A stretch of DNA of 32,000 nt. It comes from Pasteurellaceae bacterium RH1A. GTDB taxonomy: Bacteria; Pseudomonadota; Gammaproteobacteria; Enterobacterales; Pasteurellaceae. Position numbers and translations under genes: made by a program. The stretch is taken from positions 883,771 through 915,770 of the forward strand of contig CP015195.1 of the NCBI GenBank assembly GCA_012221805.1, written 5' to 3'. Under the pieces are notes generated by a model. It saw only the letters and a program-made list of their open reading frames with translations, was not told the DNA's origin and searched no databases. Shown piece by piece: positions 4,016 to 32,000 of the stretch; within the stretch, counting starts at the first letter, position 1; every line of letters begins with the position of its first letter.

Positions 4016-4861
4016 ATGACTTCACCCTTTGATTCCCCGCAAAATCCCCTTGCAGCGGGCTTTCACTATTTTATTTACGGCTGGAAGCTGATGATGCAGC
4101 GTTCCCTCCTGCCCTTTATTGTCCTGCCCATTCTCATTAACGTGGTGCTGATTGTGGGCTTAATTTGGCTCTTTTTGTCTTATTTATCGGGCTGGATGGA
4201 TGTCTTGGTCAGCTTTACCCCAAGCTGGCTAGACTGGTTGAGCTACCTGATTATTCCCCTGGCGCTCTTGCTCCTCCTGGTGCTGTTTTACTTTGCCTTT
4301 ACCACCCTGGCCAACTTTATCGCCGCCCCCTTTAACGCCCTCTTATCAGAAAAGGTGGAGCTGCAATTAACGGGCGAAAGCTTGGGCGACACCTCCATCG
4401 CTGCCATGCTCAAGGACGTGCCTAGAATGCTCAAGCGGGAATGGCAAAAGATGTGGTACAGCATTCCCCGCCTGATTGCCCTCTTTCTCCTGGGCTTTGT
4501 GCCGGTGCTGGGCCAGAGTGTTGTGCCCGTCTTGGCCTTTATGTTTAGTGCCTGGCTGGTGGCCATTCAGTATTGTGACTACCCTTTTGATAACCACAAG
4601 ATCAGCTTTGGCCGTATGCGTAATGCCTTAGCCGAAAAACGCACCCTGAACTTTACCTTTGGATCCTTGGTCAGCCTCTTTACCATGCTGCCCTTTGTCA
4701 ATTTGGTGGTGATGCCGGTGGCCGTATGTGGGGCAACGGCCATGTGGGTCAAAGAGTATCGCCATCGCTTTGTGGGCCAAGATTTGAAGCCAACTTTTAG
4801 TCGTTCGGCCTCTAAGGAAGTGGCTACCCGCAGTGCTTCTAAAGATCTGACCAAGCCATGA
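4016..4861 (+). CDS. cysZ: Sulfate transporter CysZ
   Basis: Collinear with my recollection of E. coli CysZ (GWKL..., AAPFNxLLSEK, KDVPRMLKREWQK, AIQYCDYPFDNHK, MPVAVCGATAMWV). Confidence 0.9.
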   Translation: MTSPFDSPQNPLAAGFHYFIYGWKLMMQRSLLPFIVLPILINVVLIVGLIWLFLSYLSGWMDVLVSFTPSWLDWLSYLIIPLALLLLLVLFYFAFTTLANFIAAPFNALLSEKVELQLTGESLGDTSIAAMLKDVPRMLKREWQKMWYSIPRLIALFLLGFVPVLGQSVVPVLAFMFSAWLVAIQYCDYPFDNHKISFGRMRNALAEKRTLNFTFGSLVSLFTMLPFVNLVVMPVAVCGATAMWVKEYRHRFVGQDLKPTFSRSASKEVATRSASKDLTKP

Positions 4862-6398: not shown

Positions 6399-6538
6399 AA
6401 AAGAAAACCTTTCTAAAACGCCGTGTACAACGCCTACGCAGCACCAACCGCCACCACCGAATCCTACAAATTCGGGCGAGAAAGCACACCATTGCCCAAC
6501 GCCAGCGGGTGGGGTTTATGATCAGGAATGATGTGTAG
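6395..6538 (+). CDS. Hypothetical 47-aa Arg/Lys-rich micro-protein, translationally coupled to mltF
   Basis: Its ATG overlaps the mltF stop (ATGA). The peptide is [47 protein letters not shown]. It is below the ORF-track size cutoff and I recognised no homologue. Confidence 0.3.
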
Positions 6539-6550
6539 GATATATAAAAA

Positions 6551-7639
6551 GGCATATAGGACAAAATAGTTGGTAAAAAGTGGCTTAAAGCCTTATAGTA
6601 CAAGGCTTTAAGCCCTCTTTTTGAAATATGCACAAAAAACTGTCCTTTCTGCCAACATTCCCCAATCCAGAAGTATGGCAAACAAAATAATTTACAGCGT
6701 TATAAATGTCTTAGCTGTAATAAAACATTTACGTTTAAAAATAAATTAGATCCTGAAAGAATTTGGCTTGATTATTCATCTGGAAAACAAACACAAGCAC
6801 AGCTAGCAGAAAAATACTCCTGCTCTTCTCGAACTATTCGAAGATATTTAGAGAAACACCCTAAATCCTCCTTAAATAAACCTCAAAACACATACTTGAA
6901 CTTAATTATTGATACAACATTCTTTCACCGGGATTTTGGTGTAATGGTGTTTGTTGATAGCTCTACAAAAAAGTAATTTATCACCAAATAGTCAAAACAG
7001 AAAAAGATATCTATTACAAGAAAGCGATGAACTGCTTAAGGGAAAGAAACTATATTATTCAATCAGTTACCTGTGATGGACGCAGAGGTCTATTAAAAGA
7101 CTTATTCAATACACCAACACAGATGTGTCAGTTTCATCTTGTCGCAATCGTAATGAGGGCATTGCGAAAGAAGCACCAATCACATGCGGGAAGAGAACTA
7201 AAAAGTATTATTAAGACACTTAAAACCAGCTCTAAAAATGAATTTTATTTAAAAATATATGAATGGAAGAAAAAACATCAATCATTTTTAAATGAACGGT
7301 CAGATAAACCAAATGACAAAGGGAAATACCCTTATAAACATCGAAGTGTAAGAAGTGCTGCTGCGAGTATTAAGCGTTATTATGATTATATTTTTACCTA
7401 TGAGAAACATCCTGAGTTAAATATTGAAAAGACAACAAATAGGATTGAGGGTTTATTTAAGGAGTTAAAAGACAAATTACGCCCGCACAGCGGTTTAACA
7501 AGAAAGCATAAGATCTTGTTTATACAGGATTTTTTGAATAAAAAGAGCTGGTAAAGATCCTTTAAAATAATCCTTACCAACTTTTTTGTCCTATAGAAGC
7601 ATAAAGTGCAAAAAGACCAACTATTTTGTCCTATATGCC
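6551..7639 (+). mobile_element. IS element copy 1, 1089 bp, zinc-ribbon + DDE transposase (IS1595/IS1-like organisation)
   Basis: Perfect 24-bp terminal IRs: GGCATATAGGACAAAATAGTTGGT at 6551..6574 and its reverse complement at 7616..7639. The 8-bp target duplication TATAAAAA is at 6543..6550 and 7640..7647. An internal terminator-like hairpin at 6582..6622 lies upstream of the tnp ATG. Confidence 0.9.
6628..7554 (+). pseudogene. Transposase of IS copy 1, split over three reading frames
   Basis: The ATG at 6628 is +1 out of frame with the CPFC...RYKCLSCNKTF zinc ribbon, which starts at 6641. That frame stops at TAA 6974..6976, immediately after the heptamer A_AAA_AAG. The DDE part (ITCDGRRG, TNRIEGLFKELK) continues in the -1 frame to 7554. 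Confidence 0.75.
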
Positions 7640-13278: not shown

Positions 13279-14367
13279 GGCATAATAGACAAAATAGTTG
13301 CTAAAAAGTGGCTTAAAGCCTTATAGTACAAGGCTTTAAGCCCTCTTTTTGAAAAATGAACAAAAAACTGCCCTTTCTGCCAAAGCACGAATATCAAGAA
13401 ACATGGCAAACAAAATAATATTCAGCGTTATTATTGTAATCAATGCAATAAAACCTTTACCCATCAAAAGAAATTAGACCCAATAAAGATCTGGGATGAT
13501 TACACTTCAGGAAAACAAACCTATCAACAACTTGCCAATAAGTATCATTGTTCGATTAGAACAATCCAAAGATATATTGATAAAGCCCCTAAAACATTAT
13601 TACATCCACCTCAAAGCACATCGCTTAATATAATTATGGACACTACCTTTTTTAAGCGTAATTTCGGCGTATTAGTGTTAATGGATTCTCATACAAAGAA
13701 AGTGGTATTTCACAGTTTTGTAAGAACAGAAAAAGACGTTTATTATAAGCTGGCACTTAATAGATTGAGAGAGAAAAGCTATATAATACAATCCATTACT
13801 TGTGATGGTAGGCGAGGCCTGATGAAGGACTTGTTCAATACACCTGTGCAGATGTGTCAATTCCATATGGTTGCAATAGTGATGAGAAAACTCAGGAAAA
13901 AGCATCAATCACAAGCGGGAAAAGAATTAAAAATTATTGCAAAAACACTGGTAGAGAGTTCAAAAAATGAATTTTACAAACGCCTTCATTATTGGTATTT
14001 AAAACATGAAGAGTATTTAAAAGAAAGAAGTGATAAGCCAAATGAAAAGGGATGTTTACCTTATAAGCATCGTAGTGTTAGAGGGGCTTATGCAAGCCTT
14101 AAATGGTATATGAAATATTTATTTACTTTTGAAGAACGGTCAGATTTAAATATAGAAAGGACAACAAATAGGCTTGAAGGGCTATTTAAACATATGAAGC
14201 GACAGTTAAATAATCACAATGGATTAAGCAAAAAACATAAAGCCATGTTTATAAAGGGTTTTTTGAATAAAAATAGCTGCTAACATTTTAGAAAATAAAC
14301 ATTAGCAACTATTTTGTCCACTTGGCATAGTTTTTGACGAATCAGCAACTATTTTGTCTACTATGCC
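13279..14367 (+). mobile_element. IS element copy 2, 1089 bp, same family as copy 1 but diverged
   Basis: 24-bp IRs: GGCATAATAGACAAAATAGTTGCT at 13279..13302, with the reverse complement (1 mismatch) at 14344..14367. The 8-bp target duplication ACTTTTTT is at 13271..13278 and 14368..14375. The internal hairpin is the same as in copy 1. Confidence 0.9.
13356..14283 (+). CDS. Transposase of IS copy 2 (zinc ribbon + HTH + DDE in one frame from 13369; the upstream ATG is +1 out of frame)
   Basis: CPFCQSTNIKKHGKQNNIQRYYCNQCNKTF continues uninterrupted into the track ORF 13636..14283 (IIMDTTFF, ITCDGRRG, TNRLEGLFKHMK). The only upstream ATG (13356) is offset by one nucleotic position across an A6 run, and a TGA blocks the zinc-ribbon frame at 13357. 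Confidence 0.7.
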
Positions 14368-14383
14368 ACTTTTTTAGTATGTA

Positions 14384-14514
14384 GCTCTTGCACAAAACGG
14401 TTGCTGAGCTTGTCGAAGCATAAGTTTTGTGCATGAAGCTCATGCTTGGACTAATGGTTCGACTAATGCTTCGACAAGCTCAGCAACCGTCTCACCAACC
14501 GCTCCAGCAAGAGC
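14384..14514. repeat. 131-bp palindromic MITE-like element downstream of asd
   Basis: The perfect 24-bp inverted repeat ACGGTTGCTGAGCTTGTCGAAGCA at 14397..14420 pairs with 14467..14490. It is nested inside the outer 8-bp IR GCTCTTGC / GCAAGAGC (14384..14391 and 14507..14514). A related copy lies at 24205..24289. Confidence 0.8.
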
Positions 14515-28205: not shown

Positions 28206-28550
28206 TTATCTTAAACTCAATCGTTCTCGTCCAATTTTCTCTTGAATCGCTTCGGTGACAAAGGTGTTGAGCGAACGCTTACCCGCCATAAGGCTGGCCT
28301 CACGGTGCAATTCCTCGCCGATCCGCACATTAAACACGCCCTTAAAGGGTTTATCAGGTGTTTTCCCGAGTTCGGCACAATCCTGTAAATAGAGATCAAC
28401 TGAGGTCTGAAATTCTTGTTCCAATTCAGGTATAGTTTGAGCCTCATAAGTGATTAAATCACGAATATAGGCTACTTTGCCAAACAAAATATTATTGTCT
28501 AAATCAGGCTCAATCGTACCGACATAGCCCTTGTAATTGAGTAACGTCAT
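28206..28550 (-). CDS. hicB: Type II antitoxin, HicB family
   Basis: 114 aa with an N-terminal HicB fold-type sequence (YKGYVGTIEPDLDNNILFGKV) and a C-terminal RHH-like DNA-binding tail. It overlaps the hicA stop by 4 nt. Confidence 0.8.
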   Translation of the reverse strand: MTLLNYKGYVGTIEPDLDNNILFGKVAYIRDLITYEAQTIPELEQEFQTSVDLYLQDCAELGKTPDKPFKGVFNVRIGEELHREASLMAGKRSLNTFVTEAIQEKIGRERLSLR

Positions 28551-28795
28551 AGAATACCTACCTGTTTCAATGCTAGTTTTACGGATTTCAAGGCTCCGCC
28601 CTTGATGGTATTTTCAGGATGAGGTTTGTGGAGCAAAATGGTGTGATCGAGTTTTTCATTGTAGAACCGTACTCGAGAACCTGCCATCTCCCGTTTTTCA
28701 TAGCCCTGTTGAGCCAAAAGTGTGACTAAATCAGACCAGTTAAAGGTTGCCTGTGCTTGAGCCAGTTTCTCTAAAAGCTTTCCTGCCTTGCCCAT
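28547..28795 (-). CDS. hicA: Type II toxin, HicA family mRNA interferase
   Basis: 82 aa, small and basic, with the HicA-type core GSRVRFYNE...HKPHPENTIKGGALKSV. Its position upstream of hicB is the canonical order. Confidence 0.78.
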   Translation of the reverse strand: MGKAGKLLEKLAQAQATFNWSDLVTLLAQQGYEKREMAGSRVRFYNEKLDHTILLHKPHPENTIKGGALKSVKLALKQVGIL

Positions 28796-29572: not shown

Positions 29573-29980
29573 CTAATTCCCTAAGGCTTTTTCCGCATCT
29601 TTGTTCTCGATAAATTCAATCTTATAGCCATCTGGATCTTGGGCAAAAGCAATTACCGTTTTACCACCCAAGACCGGGCCTGGTTCACGGGTGATGGTGC
29701 CGCCGGCCTGACGAATGGCCTCGCAGGTGGCGTAAATATCGTCCACGCCGATGGCAATATGGCCGTAGGCTGTGCCTAAATCATAGCTGTCCACGCCCCA
29801 GTTATAGGTTAGCTCCAAGACGGCCGTTTCGCTTTCCTCACCGTAGCCCAAAAAGGCCAGAGTATATTTATATTGCTCATTTTCGCTGGTGCGGAGCAGT
29901 TTCATGCCCAAGATTTCAGTATAGAATTTGATCGAACGGTCTAAATCCCCAACCCGTAGCATGGTATGTAAAATTCGCAT
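29573..29980 (-). CDS. gloA: Lactoylglutathione lyase (glyoxalase I)
   Basis: 135 aa with [30 protein letters not shown] and the metal-ligand pattern conserved. Confidence 0.95.
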
Positions 29981-30029
29981 AATCAGTCCTCAAGAGTTAA
30001 AAAAGTCTGCCTATTATGGCACAGTTAGA

Positions 30030-30428
30030 TTAGGTTCGTGAAGATTTTAATAATTGAATAATCTCATTTAAGGAAGCAATCTGCCTTTCTTTTTCTTTTA
30101 GGAGATCTTGATGATGTTTCAAGGCAAGTTTTAATTTTTCATTCTCTAGCGTAAGTGAATCATTGCCCGAGTAATAGGTGGTATTATTATGATTATCACC
30201 ATGCTCATTCATCAGAAAGAAAACGCCATTTTCTTTATTATTCATAAATTCAATAGCATCCATATTAAAAATATTGGCAATCTGCTCTAATTTTTCTAGG
30301 CTAAGCTTGGTCTCTCCTCGCTCAATTTTGGCATAGCCATTAAGAGACATATTCATTTTTTCAGCCATTTCTTCTTGCGACCATTGCTTGATTTCTCGCA
30401 TTACTCGGATCTTATCGTGCACACTCAT
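30030..30428 (-). CDS. XRE-family helix-turn-helix transcriptional regulator with a C-terminal coiled coil
   Basis: The N-terminal HTH_3-type sequence is IRVMREIKQWSQEEMAEKMNMSLNGYAKIERGETKLSLEKLEQIANIF. The C-terminus has a heptad-like pattern (LENEKLKLALKHHQDLLKEKERQIASLNEIIQLL). AAGGA RBS. Confidence 0.8.
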   Translation of the reverse strand: MSVHDKIRVMREIKQWSQEEMAEKMNMSLNGYAKIERGETKLSLEKLEQIANIFNMDAIEFMNNKENGVFFLMNEHGDNHNNTTYYSGNDSLTLENEKLKLALKHHQDLLKEKERQIASLNEIIQLLKSSRT

Positions 30429-30464
30429 TACTGTTCCTTAAACACACTCTTTGGGCAAATTTAA

Positions 30465-30477
30465 CCACATAATGTGG
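30465..30477. promoter_or_regulatory. Perfect palindrome CCACAT-A-ATGTGG in the divergent XRE/large-ORF intergenic region (candidate operator)
   Basis: Seen directly. It lies 37-49 bp upstream of the XRE start and about 100 bp upstream of the ATG at 30575. Confidence 0.35.
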
Positions 30478-30574
30478 GTCTTTTATCTACATTTGGTTTA
30501 TAGAATAAAGCTTCTACAACCTCTATCATAATAGCACTTTTTGCCTCGTTTACAACTTATTCAACCTCCTCCCT

Positions 30575-32000
30575 ATGAAACAGATTGAACAAAACCCCTT
30601 CAGAGTGATCGGGGTACTGGCCAACACAATGAAAAAGAGCTATTGAAGCAGAAGAATCGTTTTACAGCCTTTGCCAGAGCTAACAAATCTCTCTCTTCTG
30701 AGCTTGATTTTTCTTTTTTAACTCCCTTGTCTCGTGACAGTGAAATGATCAACAAGGCTTTCTCAGCCATTGAGTTAGCTGAAGATCGGGTTTTCCATGC
30801 CCTTTTGTGGTTTAGTAATAATACGCCTAGCGATACGATTTTTATTGATACGCTTAAAGCAGGAGAAAATGCTAAGGCACAAGAGTTGTTGGAAAAATTT
30901 ACTAGCAATAGAGCAATCTCTGCTCGAAATGTTTTTAATTTTAATAATATCTCAACTCTGTATTTTTTGGAAAATAACTTTAATAAAGCCCTATCCCTTA
31001 AATTAAGTTTAATTGAATCTGAGGCTTGGGATAATTTTGTGACAGGGATAACTGATGAAAATACTCGGGTTTCTAGCCATAAGATTATTGAGAGAGTGAT
31101 TGATGCCTTTGTTTCTGAAATAGAAACTTGTTTTGATACATCAGGATATAGAAATACAAAAAATAGTCTTACCATTCAAGATGGGTATGCGAGAAAATAT
31201 CTTGTTAAGAAGTTTTCTGATGAAGATCTCCATTATGTGGAAGGTTTAGTAGATAAAACAGAAAAAGAACGAAAAGGTAGGCCTGAAATAGCTGAAAAAT
31301 TGGCTTATAAGCTACATAAAGAATGCCAAGAAAAATTAAAAAAATTAAAAAATATTTTAGGGGAAATGGATCTGCAATACCAAATCCTAAGCGATCAGGT
31401 TGCTCAAGAAATAAATCAGTGTTCCATTGATTATTACAATTCTTCAGAAAGAAATGTTACTAAAGATTGTTTACCACTTTTGGAGCTTGCTCAACAATAT
31501 GCCACCCAAGCCTCAACAAGGAATAAGATTCAAGAAGATATTGAAACCATTAATGCAAAAATTGAAGAAGAAAAAATTAGTGGGGATTTAGAATCTATTC
31601 AATTTGAAATAAAGAGAATGACAGATAATTCACACTCCACTAATTCTAGTCTTAAGAAGCACGCTGAAAGGTGCTATTATCTATTGAAAAACATTAAAAA
31701 TGTAAATAAGGAACTTTATTTAAATCTATCTGATTTAATTGTCAATATTATACTAAGCAAATCTATTGAAATAGTGAATAAGGCCCAAGAAAAATTTTCT
31801 AGAGATAAAGACTTGGGGAATTTAAACTCTACACTTATCCATGCTGTTTCATTACTGAATTATCTTTCTTCTTTTGATATGGGGAATGATATAAGACAAC
31901 GTTTTATAACAAACAAGAATGTATTGGATAAATTATATTCTGAAGTTTCTACAGCGTATAAATCTCAAGTATCTGAAACATATAAAAATACTTCATCTCG
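30575..32000 (+). CDS. Large uncharacterised alpha-helical protein, 3'-partial (runs off the window), with an N-terminal frame break; not in the supplied ORF track
   Basis: My hand translation of the frame starting at 30589 is stop-free for 470 codons to 32000, in visibly AT-rich DNA. The ATG at 30575 (frame +1 relative to that frame) encodes MKQIEQNPFRVIGVLANT and then hits TGA at 30644. The two frames overlap over 30589..30646, and joining them near 30628 gives ...GVLANT(N)EKELLKQKNRFTAFARA... Confidence 0.6.

Follow-up and report, generated by a model that had tools for sequence, protein, structure and literature searches.

The low-GC islet beside gloA in Pasteurellaceae bacterium RH1A is best read as the start of a widespread, uncharacterised Hsp70-centred cassette with a possible role in defence

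We analyzed a stretch of 32,000 nucleotides (the window) from contig CP015195.1 of Pasteurellaceae bacterium RH1A, positions 883,771 to 915,770 of the forward strand, and in particular the low-GC islet at its right end. The islet holds the gene of a small XRE-family regulator on the minus strand and, across a short control region, most of a plus-strand gene, here called gene 1, that runs out of the window. This arrangement is best read as the 5' end of a module gained by horizontal transfer, in which the XRE repressor gene is divergent from a four-gene operon. The closest relative of the RH1A locus, designated L001, lies on a Pasteurellaceae-type contig. The features of the islet, with lengths in amino acids (aa) and open reading frames (ORFs) as indicated, are the following.

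30001..32000, no strand: left part of the low-GC islet, 32.7% GC as compared with 46.4% GC at 1-30000
30030..30428, minus strand: XRE-family (HTH_3) regulator, 132 aa, assigned by Pfam HTH_3 and by the divergent XRE gene in L001
30429..30574, no strand: divergent control region, 146 bp, from the XRE start at 30428 to the ATG at 30575
30465..30477, no strand: perfect 13-nt palindrome CCACAT-A-ATGTGG, candidate XRE operator
30575..30627, plus strand: true start and first 17-18 codons of gene 1 (MKQIEQNPFRVIGVLANT), in another frame than the long ORF
30626..30628, plus strand: frame break, one base missing in the Thr18 codon according to the DNA alignment with L001
30628..32000, plus strand: rest of gene 1, residues 19-475 of the repaired 512 aa, assigned by the open frame and the homologues
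30745..32000, plus strand: in-window extent of the GenBank coding sequence A4G20_04335 (QIW15611.1, 455 aa), which starts at the internal Met58
30600..31175, minus strand: no real gene but a 191-aa antisense shadow of the conserved plus-strand coding frame, which covers it completely

The drop in GC content behind gloA, which the original prediction had estimated by eye, is borne out by these figures. Successive 500-nt windows across 30001-32000 have 34, 37, 31 and 29% GC, compared with 41-50% in the neighbouring windows. The left border of the islet lies just past gloA (29573-29980; Glyoxalase, E 1.5e-29), and the right border is beyond the window. Upstream of gloA there are rnt (RNase_T) and a HicA/HicB pair, all of native composition. 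The homologous cassette in L001 has 31% GC against 42% in its flanks, and that of a Lonepinella genome has 35% against 40-41%. The three copies occupy three different chromosomal insertion sites, namely beside gloA in RH1A, between a phosphotransferase system (PTS) gene and greB in L001, and between an ABC transporter gene and trpE in Lonepinella. Low GC at three sites in Pasteurellaceae-type contigs, together with the nearest genomic relatives of gene 1, which in a genome scan were all Bacteroidota, supports the earlier view of an islet of foreign composition.

The plus-strand frame is open from 30589 to 32000, over the 470 codons counted in the original prediction. The chance of such a run is about 4e-18 at the frame's own base composition, while the other five frames contain 17-74 stops; a chance ORF is ruled out by this probability and by the existing homologues. 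The minus-strand ORF at 30600-31175 had rightly been taken for an antisense shadow, and it is ruled out as a real gene because the plus frame is the conserved one. The long frame does not, however, begin behind the 146-bp gap as had been supposed. The ATG at 30575 is out of frame with it; the frame of this ATG, MKQIEQNPFRVIGVLANTMKKSY, runs for 23 codons up to a stop at 30644-30646, and near the 5' end of the long frame there is no start codon. All homologues begin with M-x4-5-NP(F/Y)R(V/I)xG...(S/T)E(K/R)E(L/I), which corresponds to the 18 codons from 30575 joined to the long frame. Residue 2 of the window frame aligns to homologue residue ~20 in nearly all of the best 150 of 1,133 family representatives. 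At the break site RH1A has GCCAACA-CAATG, as opposed to GCCAACACCAGTG in L001 in the DNA alignment. Because the homologues span both pieces, these are one gene split by a missing base.

Between RH1A and L001, codons 6-17 differ by nine synonymous and no non-synonymous substitutions. This indicates that the N-terminal segment was under selection until very recently, which means that the break is of recent date or else an error of the assembly. The repaired N-terminus fits the columns of the family alignment, in which M1, N7 and P8 are invariant and R10 and G13 near-invariant. The GenBank product QIW15611.1 (P0001; 100% identical over 88% of the query) lacks these five residues and the conserved N-terminal module; this 455-aa "hypothetical protein" is a truncated call of the frame-broken gene. 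At the other end, gene 1 finishes 37 codons past the window (~32112), in a hydrophobic tail, so that the "large" gene of the original prediction comes to a repaired length of 512 aa. The damage that had been proposed as the sign of a decayed pseudogene is present in part, at the 5' end and not at the 3' end, where these 37 further codons are open.

The genes that follow were compared in 14 distinct related loci from metagenome contigs, Bacteroidota genomes, the Lonepinella genome and plasmid pHALHY02. The same order recurs wherever a locus extends far enough: gene 1, a gene 2 of ~300 aa, a gene 3 for an HSP70 of ~840 aa, and a gene 4 for a Pkinase+AAA protein. The order is conserved in the metagenome contigs, in most of the nine Bacteroidota genomes scanned, in the Lonepinella genome and on pHALHY02. 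The Hsp70 gene is two genes downstream of gene 1 in every complete locus, and in RH1A it encodes the next annotated protein. The RH1A proteins QIW15611.1 (gene 1, A4G20_04335), QIW15612.1 (Hsp70, 841 aa) and QIW15613.1 (Pkinase+AAA, 528 aa, A4G20_04350) are consecutive across locus tags 04335-04350 of one 2.31-Mb replicon. From this accession and locus-tag numbering we infer that the Hsp70 and kinase-AAA genes lie immediately downstream of gene 1, in agreement with the expectation that the rest of the system would be found beyond the window. The four locus-tag slots carry three protein accessions. By synteny with the other loci, the slot without a protein would be gene 2, and its state would fit a pseudogene annotation. 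The RH1A Hsp70 is 76% identical to that of L001, and its motifs, as well as those of the AAA+ module, are intact. Overall, the RH1A copy looks partly inactivated, with a frame break in gene 1, no protein record for gene 2, and a kinase half that lacks both catalytic Asp residues.

The product of gene 1 had been described as a big orphan protein. It belongs instead to a family of 1,133 representatives (50%-identity clusters) at E<=1e-3, of which 748 are found at <=1e-10 and 107 at <=1e-30, and it has a fixed operon context. For the best 150 of the 1,133 representatives the alignments are near-full-length, with E from 6e-73 to 1e-27. The repaired protein has no family match in Pfam, NCBIfam or PADLOC and no enzymatic motif, as had been noted for its visible part. 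Its composition, predicted as Lys/Asn/Glu-rich, is rich in Lys, Asn, Glu and Ser. The AlphaFold2 (AF2) model of P0002, the nearest full-length homologue (40% identical), is entirely helical, in line with the earlier forecast, at pLDDT 91.8 and pTM 0.79; it ends in a helix at residues 500-528 after a disordered linker. The layout of gene 1 comprises a J-like N-terminal module (to ~30815), one TPR-like unit, a long helical body and a tail anchor. The hydrophobic 19-mer SEFGWVIWVLIALVIIAVM forms residues 434-452 of P0001, three residues from the end, with a mean Kyte-Doolittle value of 2.33. By the sequence criterion of a single hydrophobic C-terminal helix, the protein is predicted to be a tail-anchored membrane protein.

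The C-termini vary across the family and include the tail anchor, CFI-box-CTERM (a RefSeq name), and FGE-sulfatase or beta-rich domains. Gene 1 is also the fastest-diverging member of the cassette, with 25-40% identity as compared with 56-76% for the cassette Hsp70. Full-length Foldseek searches against the PDB and the BFVD viral models returned generic TPR, Sel1 and helical-repeat noise with a TM-score of at most 0.26, and the whole-family profile had no significant match among PDB sequences. No relatives of gene 1 were found in phage genomes, which leaves a prophage or phage-encoded origin unsupported.

The first ~75 residues of gene 1 are suggestive of a divergent J-domain-like module without the HPD motif, and we call the module J-like rather than class the protein among J-domain proteins. 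When the N-terminal profile was compared with the PDB, seven of the 12 weak matches (E 0.08-1.7) were J-domains aligned in one register. The AF2 model of residues 1-125 has a pLDDT of 89.5. Among its 17 weak Foldseek matches (best E 2.2) at least six are J-domains, with TM-scores of 0.54-0.61 normalised to the J-domain; they include CbpA, DNAJB12, Ydj1, Thermus DnaJ2 and a DNAJB1 chimera. In an hhalign comparison with E. coli DnaJ, 25 columns covering helices I and II aligned at P 4e-4. After helix II, at the place where HPD would be, the family consensus has A-x-V-G-K followed by a loop of ~20 residues.

Gene 2 encodes a protein of ~300-320 aa with a signal peptide, a Q/N-rich coiled coil, a transmembrane (TM) segment and a conserved C-terminal domain. 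The best or near-best match of this domain in Pfam is GrpE (PF01025), at 14.6-24.6 bits relative to a cutoff of 25.8 (E 2e-5 to 0.03). The alignments always fall at model positions 68-165 of 165 and are co-linear to the model end. Comparison of the domain with E. coli GrpE by hhalign gave E 0.0046 and a probability of 7.6%. In PDB profile searches with gene 2, GrpE was swamped by coiled-coil matches, and the C-terminal domain searched alone was negative. These similarities are suggestive of a GrpE-like domain on the cytoplasmic side of a membrane protein that is predicted from sequence to be bitopic. RefSeq names gene 2 on pHALHY02 (L018:10254-11153; NC_015512.1, HALHY_RS33405) "septum formation initiator", a label that is probably a misannotation driven by the coiled coil.

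The ~840-aa HSP70 encoded by gene 3 is matched by Pfam at E 1.5e-58 over the nucleotide-binding domain (NBD) only. Its phosphate and adenosine motifs are invariant, and the DVLLLD linker is absent. One segment is co-linear with the beta part of the DnaK substrate-binding domain (SBD-beta; hhalign P 0.005, 96 columns). The PDB profile search of the Hsp70 was negative for the DnaK SBD. About 200 extra helical residues follow the SBD-beta-like segment at the C-terminus. Identity between the Pasteurellaceae and Bacteroidota copies is 56-76%. Among 8,000 candidate relatives scored, more than 7,700 had E<=1e-30, and the top 120 were all at least 60% identical to the query. At the position aligned with DnaK Arg167 (P0155 residues ~150-165), an invariant Glu is found in 22 cassette Hsp70s. 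In DnaK, R167 pairs with D35, the aspartate of the J-domain HPD. The conserved Lys/Arg of gene 1 in the place of HPD and the Glu of the Hsp70 could form a charge-swapped interface.

Gene 4 encodes a protein of ~530-590 aa in which a protein-kinase-like domain is joined to a classical AAA+ module. In the AAA+ half, Walker A, Walker B, an SK(F/W)V pore loop, the ATNRP sensor and the Arg fingers are invariant. PADLOC matches the AAA half to IetA (E 4.5e-35) and the kinase half to PD-T4-6 (E ~3e-9); TRIP13 is a further match of gene 4, and all of these are at the level of domains only. The Bacteroidota copies retain the kinase Lys, H(N/R)D...N and DFG. Three Pasteurellaceae-type copies were compared with them, namely P0276 (RH1A A4G20_04350), L001:15091-16728 and the Lonepinella copy L019:12593-14209. 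All three have lost the kinase motifs, with HNQ/GFG in RH1A and YNE/DLD in L001, and the activation segment is gone too. The AAA+ motifs are unchanged, and this lineage seems to have switched to a pseudokinase.

The regulator was recognised in the original prediction as an XRE-type helix-turn-helix (HTH) protein with a coiled coil, and this assignment stands. Pfam HTH_3 matches residues 7-58 of the 132-aa ORF with 46.7 bits at a gathering cutoff of 23 (E 3.3e-12), and the C-terminal tail is heptad or coiled-coil-like. PADLOC returned HTH_VI, control-protein, capH and RmrA-type matches, which are generic models of HTH regulators, and the RstR-like match in NCBIfam is below the cutoff. A 63%-identical XRE protein is likewise divergent from the cassette in L001, so the proposed repressor beside the long ORF is a conserved divergent partner. 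For the other loci (Bacteroidota, Lonepinella), the lists of genes and ORFs show no divergent XRE gene directly upstream of gene 1, although no dedicated HTH scan was made there. The protein is presumed to repress the divergent cassette.

Both the 146-bp gap and the perfect palindrome at 30465-30477 are real, and the palindrome is a candidate operator for the XRE protein. It is not rare by chance, however, with an estimated ~0.03-0.3 palindromes of 13 nt expected in 146 bp depending on the loops allowed, and its counterpart at the same position in L001 is a degenerate ACACAA-A-ATGGGT that keeps four of six pairs. Two other blocks, TTTATAGAAT (~30497-30506) and CTATCATA (~30523-30530), are conserved in the L001 intergenic region. 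The second of these is overlapped, on the minus strand, by a promoter-like site (TTGTAA, 16 nt, TG-TATTAT; 30555-30528). A terminator-like prediction at the palindrome was dismissed as meaningless between two divergent start codons.

The distribution of the cassette bears signs of mobility. In locus L009, genes for a MobC-like protein (E 2e-61) and a MobA/VirD2 relaxase (E 1e-27) lie directly upstream of the cassette (L009:6804-8505), which makes this copy the cargo of a mobilisable element. In L017, a gene pair encoding 144 and 420 aa lies in the same position (L017:5696-7397) and agrees in size with the L009 mob genes. Relaxase linkage is thus found in at least one locus and probably in a second. 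A further copy is carried by plasmid pHALHY02. Named carriers of the Hsp70 and kinase-AAA genes include Riemerella, Elizabethkingia, Capnocytophaga, Bergeyella, Myroides, Chryseobacterium and Flavobacterium psychrophilum. Judged by the neighbouring genes tested, four of the 14 loci lie in defence islands, with the following content.

L004: type I restriction-modification (R-M) system and a Dsr1-like SIR2 protein
L010: MzaB, MzaC and a DrmMII-like methylase
L014: HEC-06/Orf5
pHALHY02: cassette between SIR2 and BREX brxL/pglZ

Additional genes accompany the cassette in some loci. A TerB-domain protein is encoded right after kinase-AAA in L004/L005 and on pHALHY02 (L018:15525-16064), and in L004/L005 a ClpB-like double-AAA gene follows two genes after TerB (L004:19505-22199 spans the extra 3' genes). 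The same two loci have an extra 676-aa protein between gene 1 and gene 2 (L004:12228-14258), for which there was no Pfam match. An extra ORF of 133-226 aa between the Hsp70 and kinase-AAA genes is present in L011:11323-11724, L013:14946-15626, L015:15369-15770 and L017:13223-13864, with no convincing Pfam match. In Lonepinella, a 77-aa ORF and a gene for a PIN-domain protein after the cassette (L019:14303-14953) form a VapBC-like toxin-antitoxin pair. Finally, a Dysgonomonas metagenome-assembled genome contains a 255-aa N-terminal fragment of gene 1 (L016:10001-10768) with neither Hsp70 nor kinase-AAA nearby, a solitary remnant.

We interpret the cassette as an uncharacterised Hsp70-centred accessory package that protects against phages or other mobile elements, a reading to which we give a probability of roughly 0.5; its anatomy, as described above, is highly probable. 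The gene 1 protein would act as a membrane-bound adaptor or sensor that picks a client and contacts the dedicated Hsp70 by way of its J-like module, and the GrpE-like gene 2 protein would reset and recycle the Hsp70. The Hsp70 may then hand over to, or activate, the kinase-AAA+ machine, paralleling DnaK-ClpB, with unfolding and/or phosphorylation as the output. The XRE protein, at the intergenic palindrome, would hold the operon low until induction. Defence is made plausible by the four of 14 loci in defence islands. Also suggestive are the mobility, foreign composition and patchy distribution of the cassette, its XRE-type regulator, the fast-diverging and module-swapping gene 1 beside highly conserved machinery, and the IetA-like and PD-T4-6-like halves of gene 4. 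The phage-defence or abortive-infection locus of the original prediction is accordingly plausible by association, while defence itself is unproven. A bolder form of the reading, which we put forward tentatively and consider on the whole unlikely, is an immune class built on a private Hsp70 cycle. A membrane J-like sensor would see a phage or mobile-element product and load the Hsp70, the GrpE-like protein would reset it, and the kinase-AAA+ protein would neutralise the invader or abort the infection. The J-Hsp70 interface may have been re-wired, and the RH1A copy would have been disabled recently.

Several observations weigh against a defence role or against the parts on which it is built. No recognised defence neighbour was found among the genes tested at 10 of the 14 loci, and enrichment is not established, there being no background rate. 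The cassette has no visible classical effector such as a nuclease, NADase or pore-former. Pfam DnaJ (PF00226) was unmatched at E<=1 in the repaired RH1A protein and not recurrent in 77 members, no individual PDB or Foldseek match is significant for the J-like module, and HPD is absent in RH1A and in the 35- and 77-sequence alignments. Similarly, the GrpE and SBD similarities are below threshold. The RH1A copy may be non-functional, or its frame break an assembly error, and the state of its gene 2 is deduced solely from accession and locus-tag numbering. The conservation of the Hsp70 across phyla also fits a housekeeping-like accessory chaperone, and the same set of parts would make up a membrane proteostasis machine just as well.

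The last point leads to a different view of the cassette, as a chaperone machine for membrane proteostasis or envelope stress that spreads as an adaptive accessory trait and has no part in defence. A tail-anchored J-like adaptor, a GrpE-like factor and the Hsp70 would remodel membrane clients and pass them to an AAA+ unfoldase, like HscC with DjlB/DjlC or like DnaK-ClpB. This explanation draws on the chaperone-cycle or unfoldase nature of all four proteins, which include no classical toxic effector domain, and on the membrane anchors of both gene 1 and gene 2. The unusual conservation of the Hsp70, at 56-76% across phyla, and the TerB (stress- and tellurite-associated) and ClpB-like genes after the cassette in some loci point the same way, as do the missing defence neighbours at most loci. 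We nevertheless regard it as rather unlikely, given the patchy distribution, the foreign GC content, the three Pasteurellaceae-type insertion sites and the relaxase linkage. Moreover, four of the 14 cassettes sit directly among SIR2, R-M, Mza, HEC-06 or BREX genes, and XRE-type control, a diversifying gene 1 with swappable C-termini and an IetA/PD-T4-6-like gene 4 are more typical of conflict systems.

The state of the RH1A copy itself allows three explanations. It may be a decaying remnant with a truly frameshifted gene 1, a gene 2 pseudogene and a dead kinase, and hence without a functional full-length product. The break strips M1, N7, P8, R10 and G13 from any long-frame product, no protein accession other than that of the Hsp70 exists between the gene 1 and kinase-AAA tags, and the kinase half has HNQ/GFG instead of HRD/DFG. 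In addition, the large ORFs elsewhere in the window (1029, 929, 739 and 650 aa) are intact, which indicates that the assembly is not generally frameshift-ridden. Decay fits less well with a long frame that is fully open over 470 + 37 codons, with the nine synonymous and zero non-synonymous differences upstream of the break, which would make any inactivation very recent, and with the intact Hsp70 (841 aa) and AAA half. The dead kinase is common to L001 and Lonepinella, whose cassettes are otherwise intact, and this speaks for a lineage trait and not for decay. We judge the remnant explanation a serious candidate that falls somewhat short of an even chance. Alternatively, the break stems from sequencing or assembly, where one base of an AT-rich region was wrongly called as deleted, and the living strain has an intact gene. 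Only one base is missing, the two frame pieces show no other damage and bear marks of purifying selection up to the break, and clustering of indel errors in the low-GC islet would account for a second neighbouring gene without a protein record. Yet the missing base lies within ACACC, which is not a long homopolymer, and the other genes of the 32-kb window are intact; an error is therefore possible but doubtful. The third explanation is low-level expression through a -1 ribosomal slip on G-AAA-AAG (30631-30637) that re-enters the family frame. A-AAA-AAG is the -1 frameshift heptamer of E. coli dnaX, and the tRNA-Lys that decodes AAG is slip-prone. In RH1A, frame 0 after the break reads ATG-AAA-AAG, and a slip would give ...ANTMKK-ELLKQKNR, of the same length as the family ...ANTSEKELLKQKNR. 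The first base of the heptamer is G and not A, though, and the A5 run derives from ancestral coding sequence (in L001, GAA-AAA-GAG), which makes its position probably a coincidence and the slip very improbable.

Among the closest known counterparts of the cassette is the DnaK-DnaJ-GrpE cycle with ClpB. The likeness consists of an Hsp70 with intact ATPase motifs, a partner that resembles J-helices I and II, a GrpE-like partner and a neighbouring AAA+ unfoldase. In contrast to that system, the cassette has A-x-V-G-K instead of HPD and misses the Pfam DnaJ and GrpE thresholds. Its Hsp70 differs from DnaK in its length of ~840 aa, the absent DVLLLD linker and the ~200 additional helical residues at the C-terminus. 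Both co-factors are membrane-anchored, and all parts are contained in one mobile XRE-controlled operon. Unlike the two-ring ClpB, the AAA+ protein has a single classical-clade module fused to a kinase-like domain. As Kluck et al. (2002) reportedly described, E. coli HscC (YbeW), a specialised non-essential Hsp70, is encoded beside the tail-anchored DjlB/DjlC of ~480 aa. With an N-terminal J module and a C-terminal TM anchor, DjlB/DjlC resemble gene 1 in overall architecture. Their J-domains are canonical in having HPD, HscC is 556 aa long, and the locus is not known to have a GrpE-like or kinase-AAA partner.

Among defence systems, gene 4 recalls ietAS through its AAA half, which matches IetA, and PD-T4-6/Stk-type systems through its kinase half, which matches PD-T4-6 models. 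The cassette lacks the IetS protease partner, however, and neither type of system has the kinase-AAA fusion or the Hsp70, J-like and GrpE-like partners. The regulatory arrangement resembles that of C-protein, CapH and RmrA-type XRE-controlled operons, where a small HTH_3 protein is divergent from its presumed target operon and the control region has a palindrome; in the cassette the palindrome is only degenerate in L001 and is a candidate operator. PADLOC-DB v2.0.0 had no match for gene 1, gene 2 or the Hsp70, and the cassette is not a catalogued anti-phage system. In the full-text literature no description of it was found, with incomplete coverage, and an earlier description is possible. Proteins with Hsp70-like NBD and SBD are described in predicted conflict systems, namely CoCoNuT type III (CnuD/CnuCD) and GTPase-centric systems, one theme of which carries GrpE and DnaJ-fused partners (PMC11090510; PMC7159879). 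Those systems use McrBC-type or GAP1-N2-type GTPases, HEPN nucleases and tubulin, none of which the cassette has. The Walker-like motifs of their Hsp70 are described as degenerate, unlike the invariant motifs of the cassette, and no kinase-AAA partner is described in either PMC11090510 or PMC7159879.

Elsewhere in the window, the HicA toxin (82 aa, E 1.3e-12) and HicB antitoxin (114 aa, E 2.9e-16) are encoded at 28206-28795 on the minus strand, in DNA of native GC content. This toxin-antitoxin module had been counted as a hint of a defence island; it is cut off from the islet by the native-GC genes rnt and gloA, which rules out HicAB as part of it. There are no tRNA genes, as possible integration sites, anywhere in the 32-kb window. 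A second low-GC patch at 6501-7500 (33-34% GC) contains a 175-aa ORF (7027-7554, plus strand) with a weak match to the C-terminal region of a Mutator-family transposase (E 5e-4), probably the remnant of an insertion sequence. A third patch at 13501-14500 (~34% GC), between a redoxin gene and asd, contains a 215-aa ORF (13636-14283, plus strand) with no Pfam match.

The window thus holds only the regulator and the frame-broken gene 1, and these point to a widespread system: a conserved and uncharacterised module in which a specialised Hsp70 with its J-like and putative nucleotide exchange partners is coupled to an AAA+ ATPase. Its Hsp70 is always accompanied by J-like and GrpE-like partners and by the kinase-AAA+ protein, and the cassette occurs in Bacteroidota on a mobilisable element, on a plasmid and in defence islands, and also in animal-associated Pasteurellaceae. 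If its role is in defence, the system would add a mechanism based on the chaperone cycle to bacterial immunity, and would offer a tractable case of an HPD-less J-like protein with a co-evolved Hsp70. If it is not, the cassette would still be a membrane proteostasis machine not described before, one passed on horizontally between pathogens such as Riemerella, Elizabethkingia, Capnocytophaga and Flavobacterium psychrophilum.

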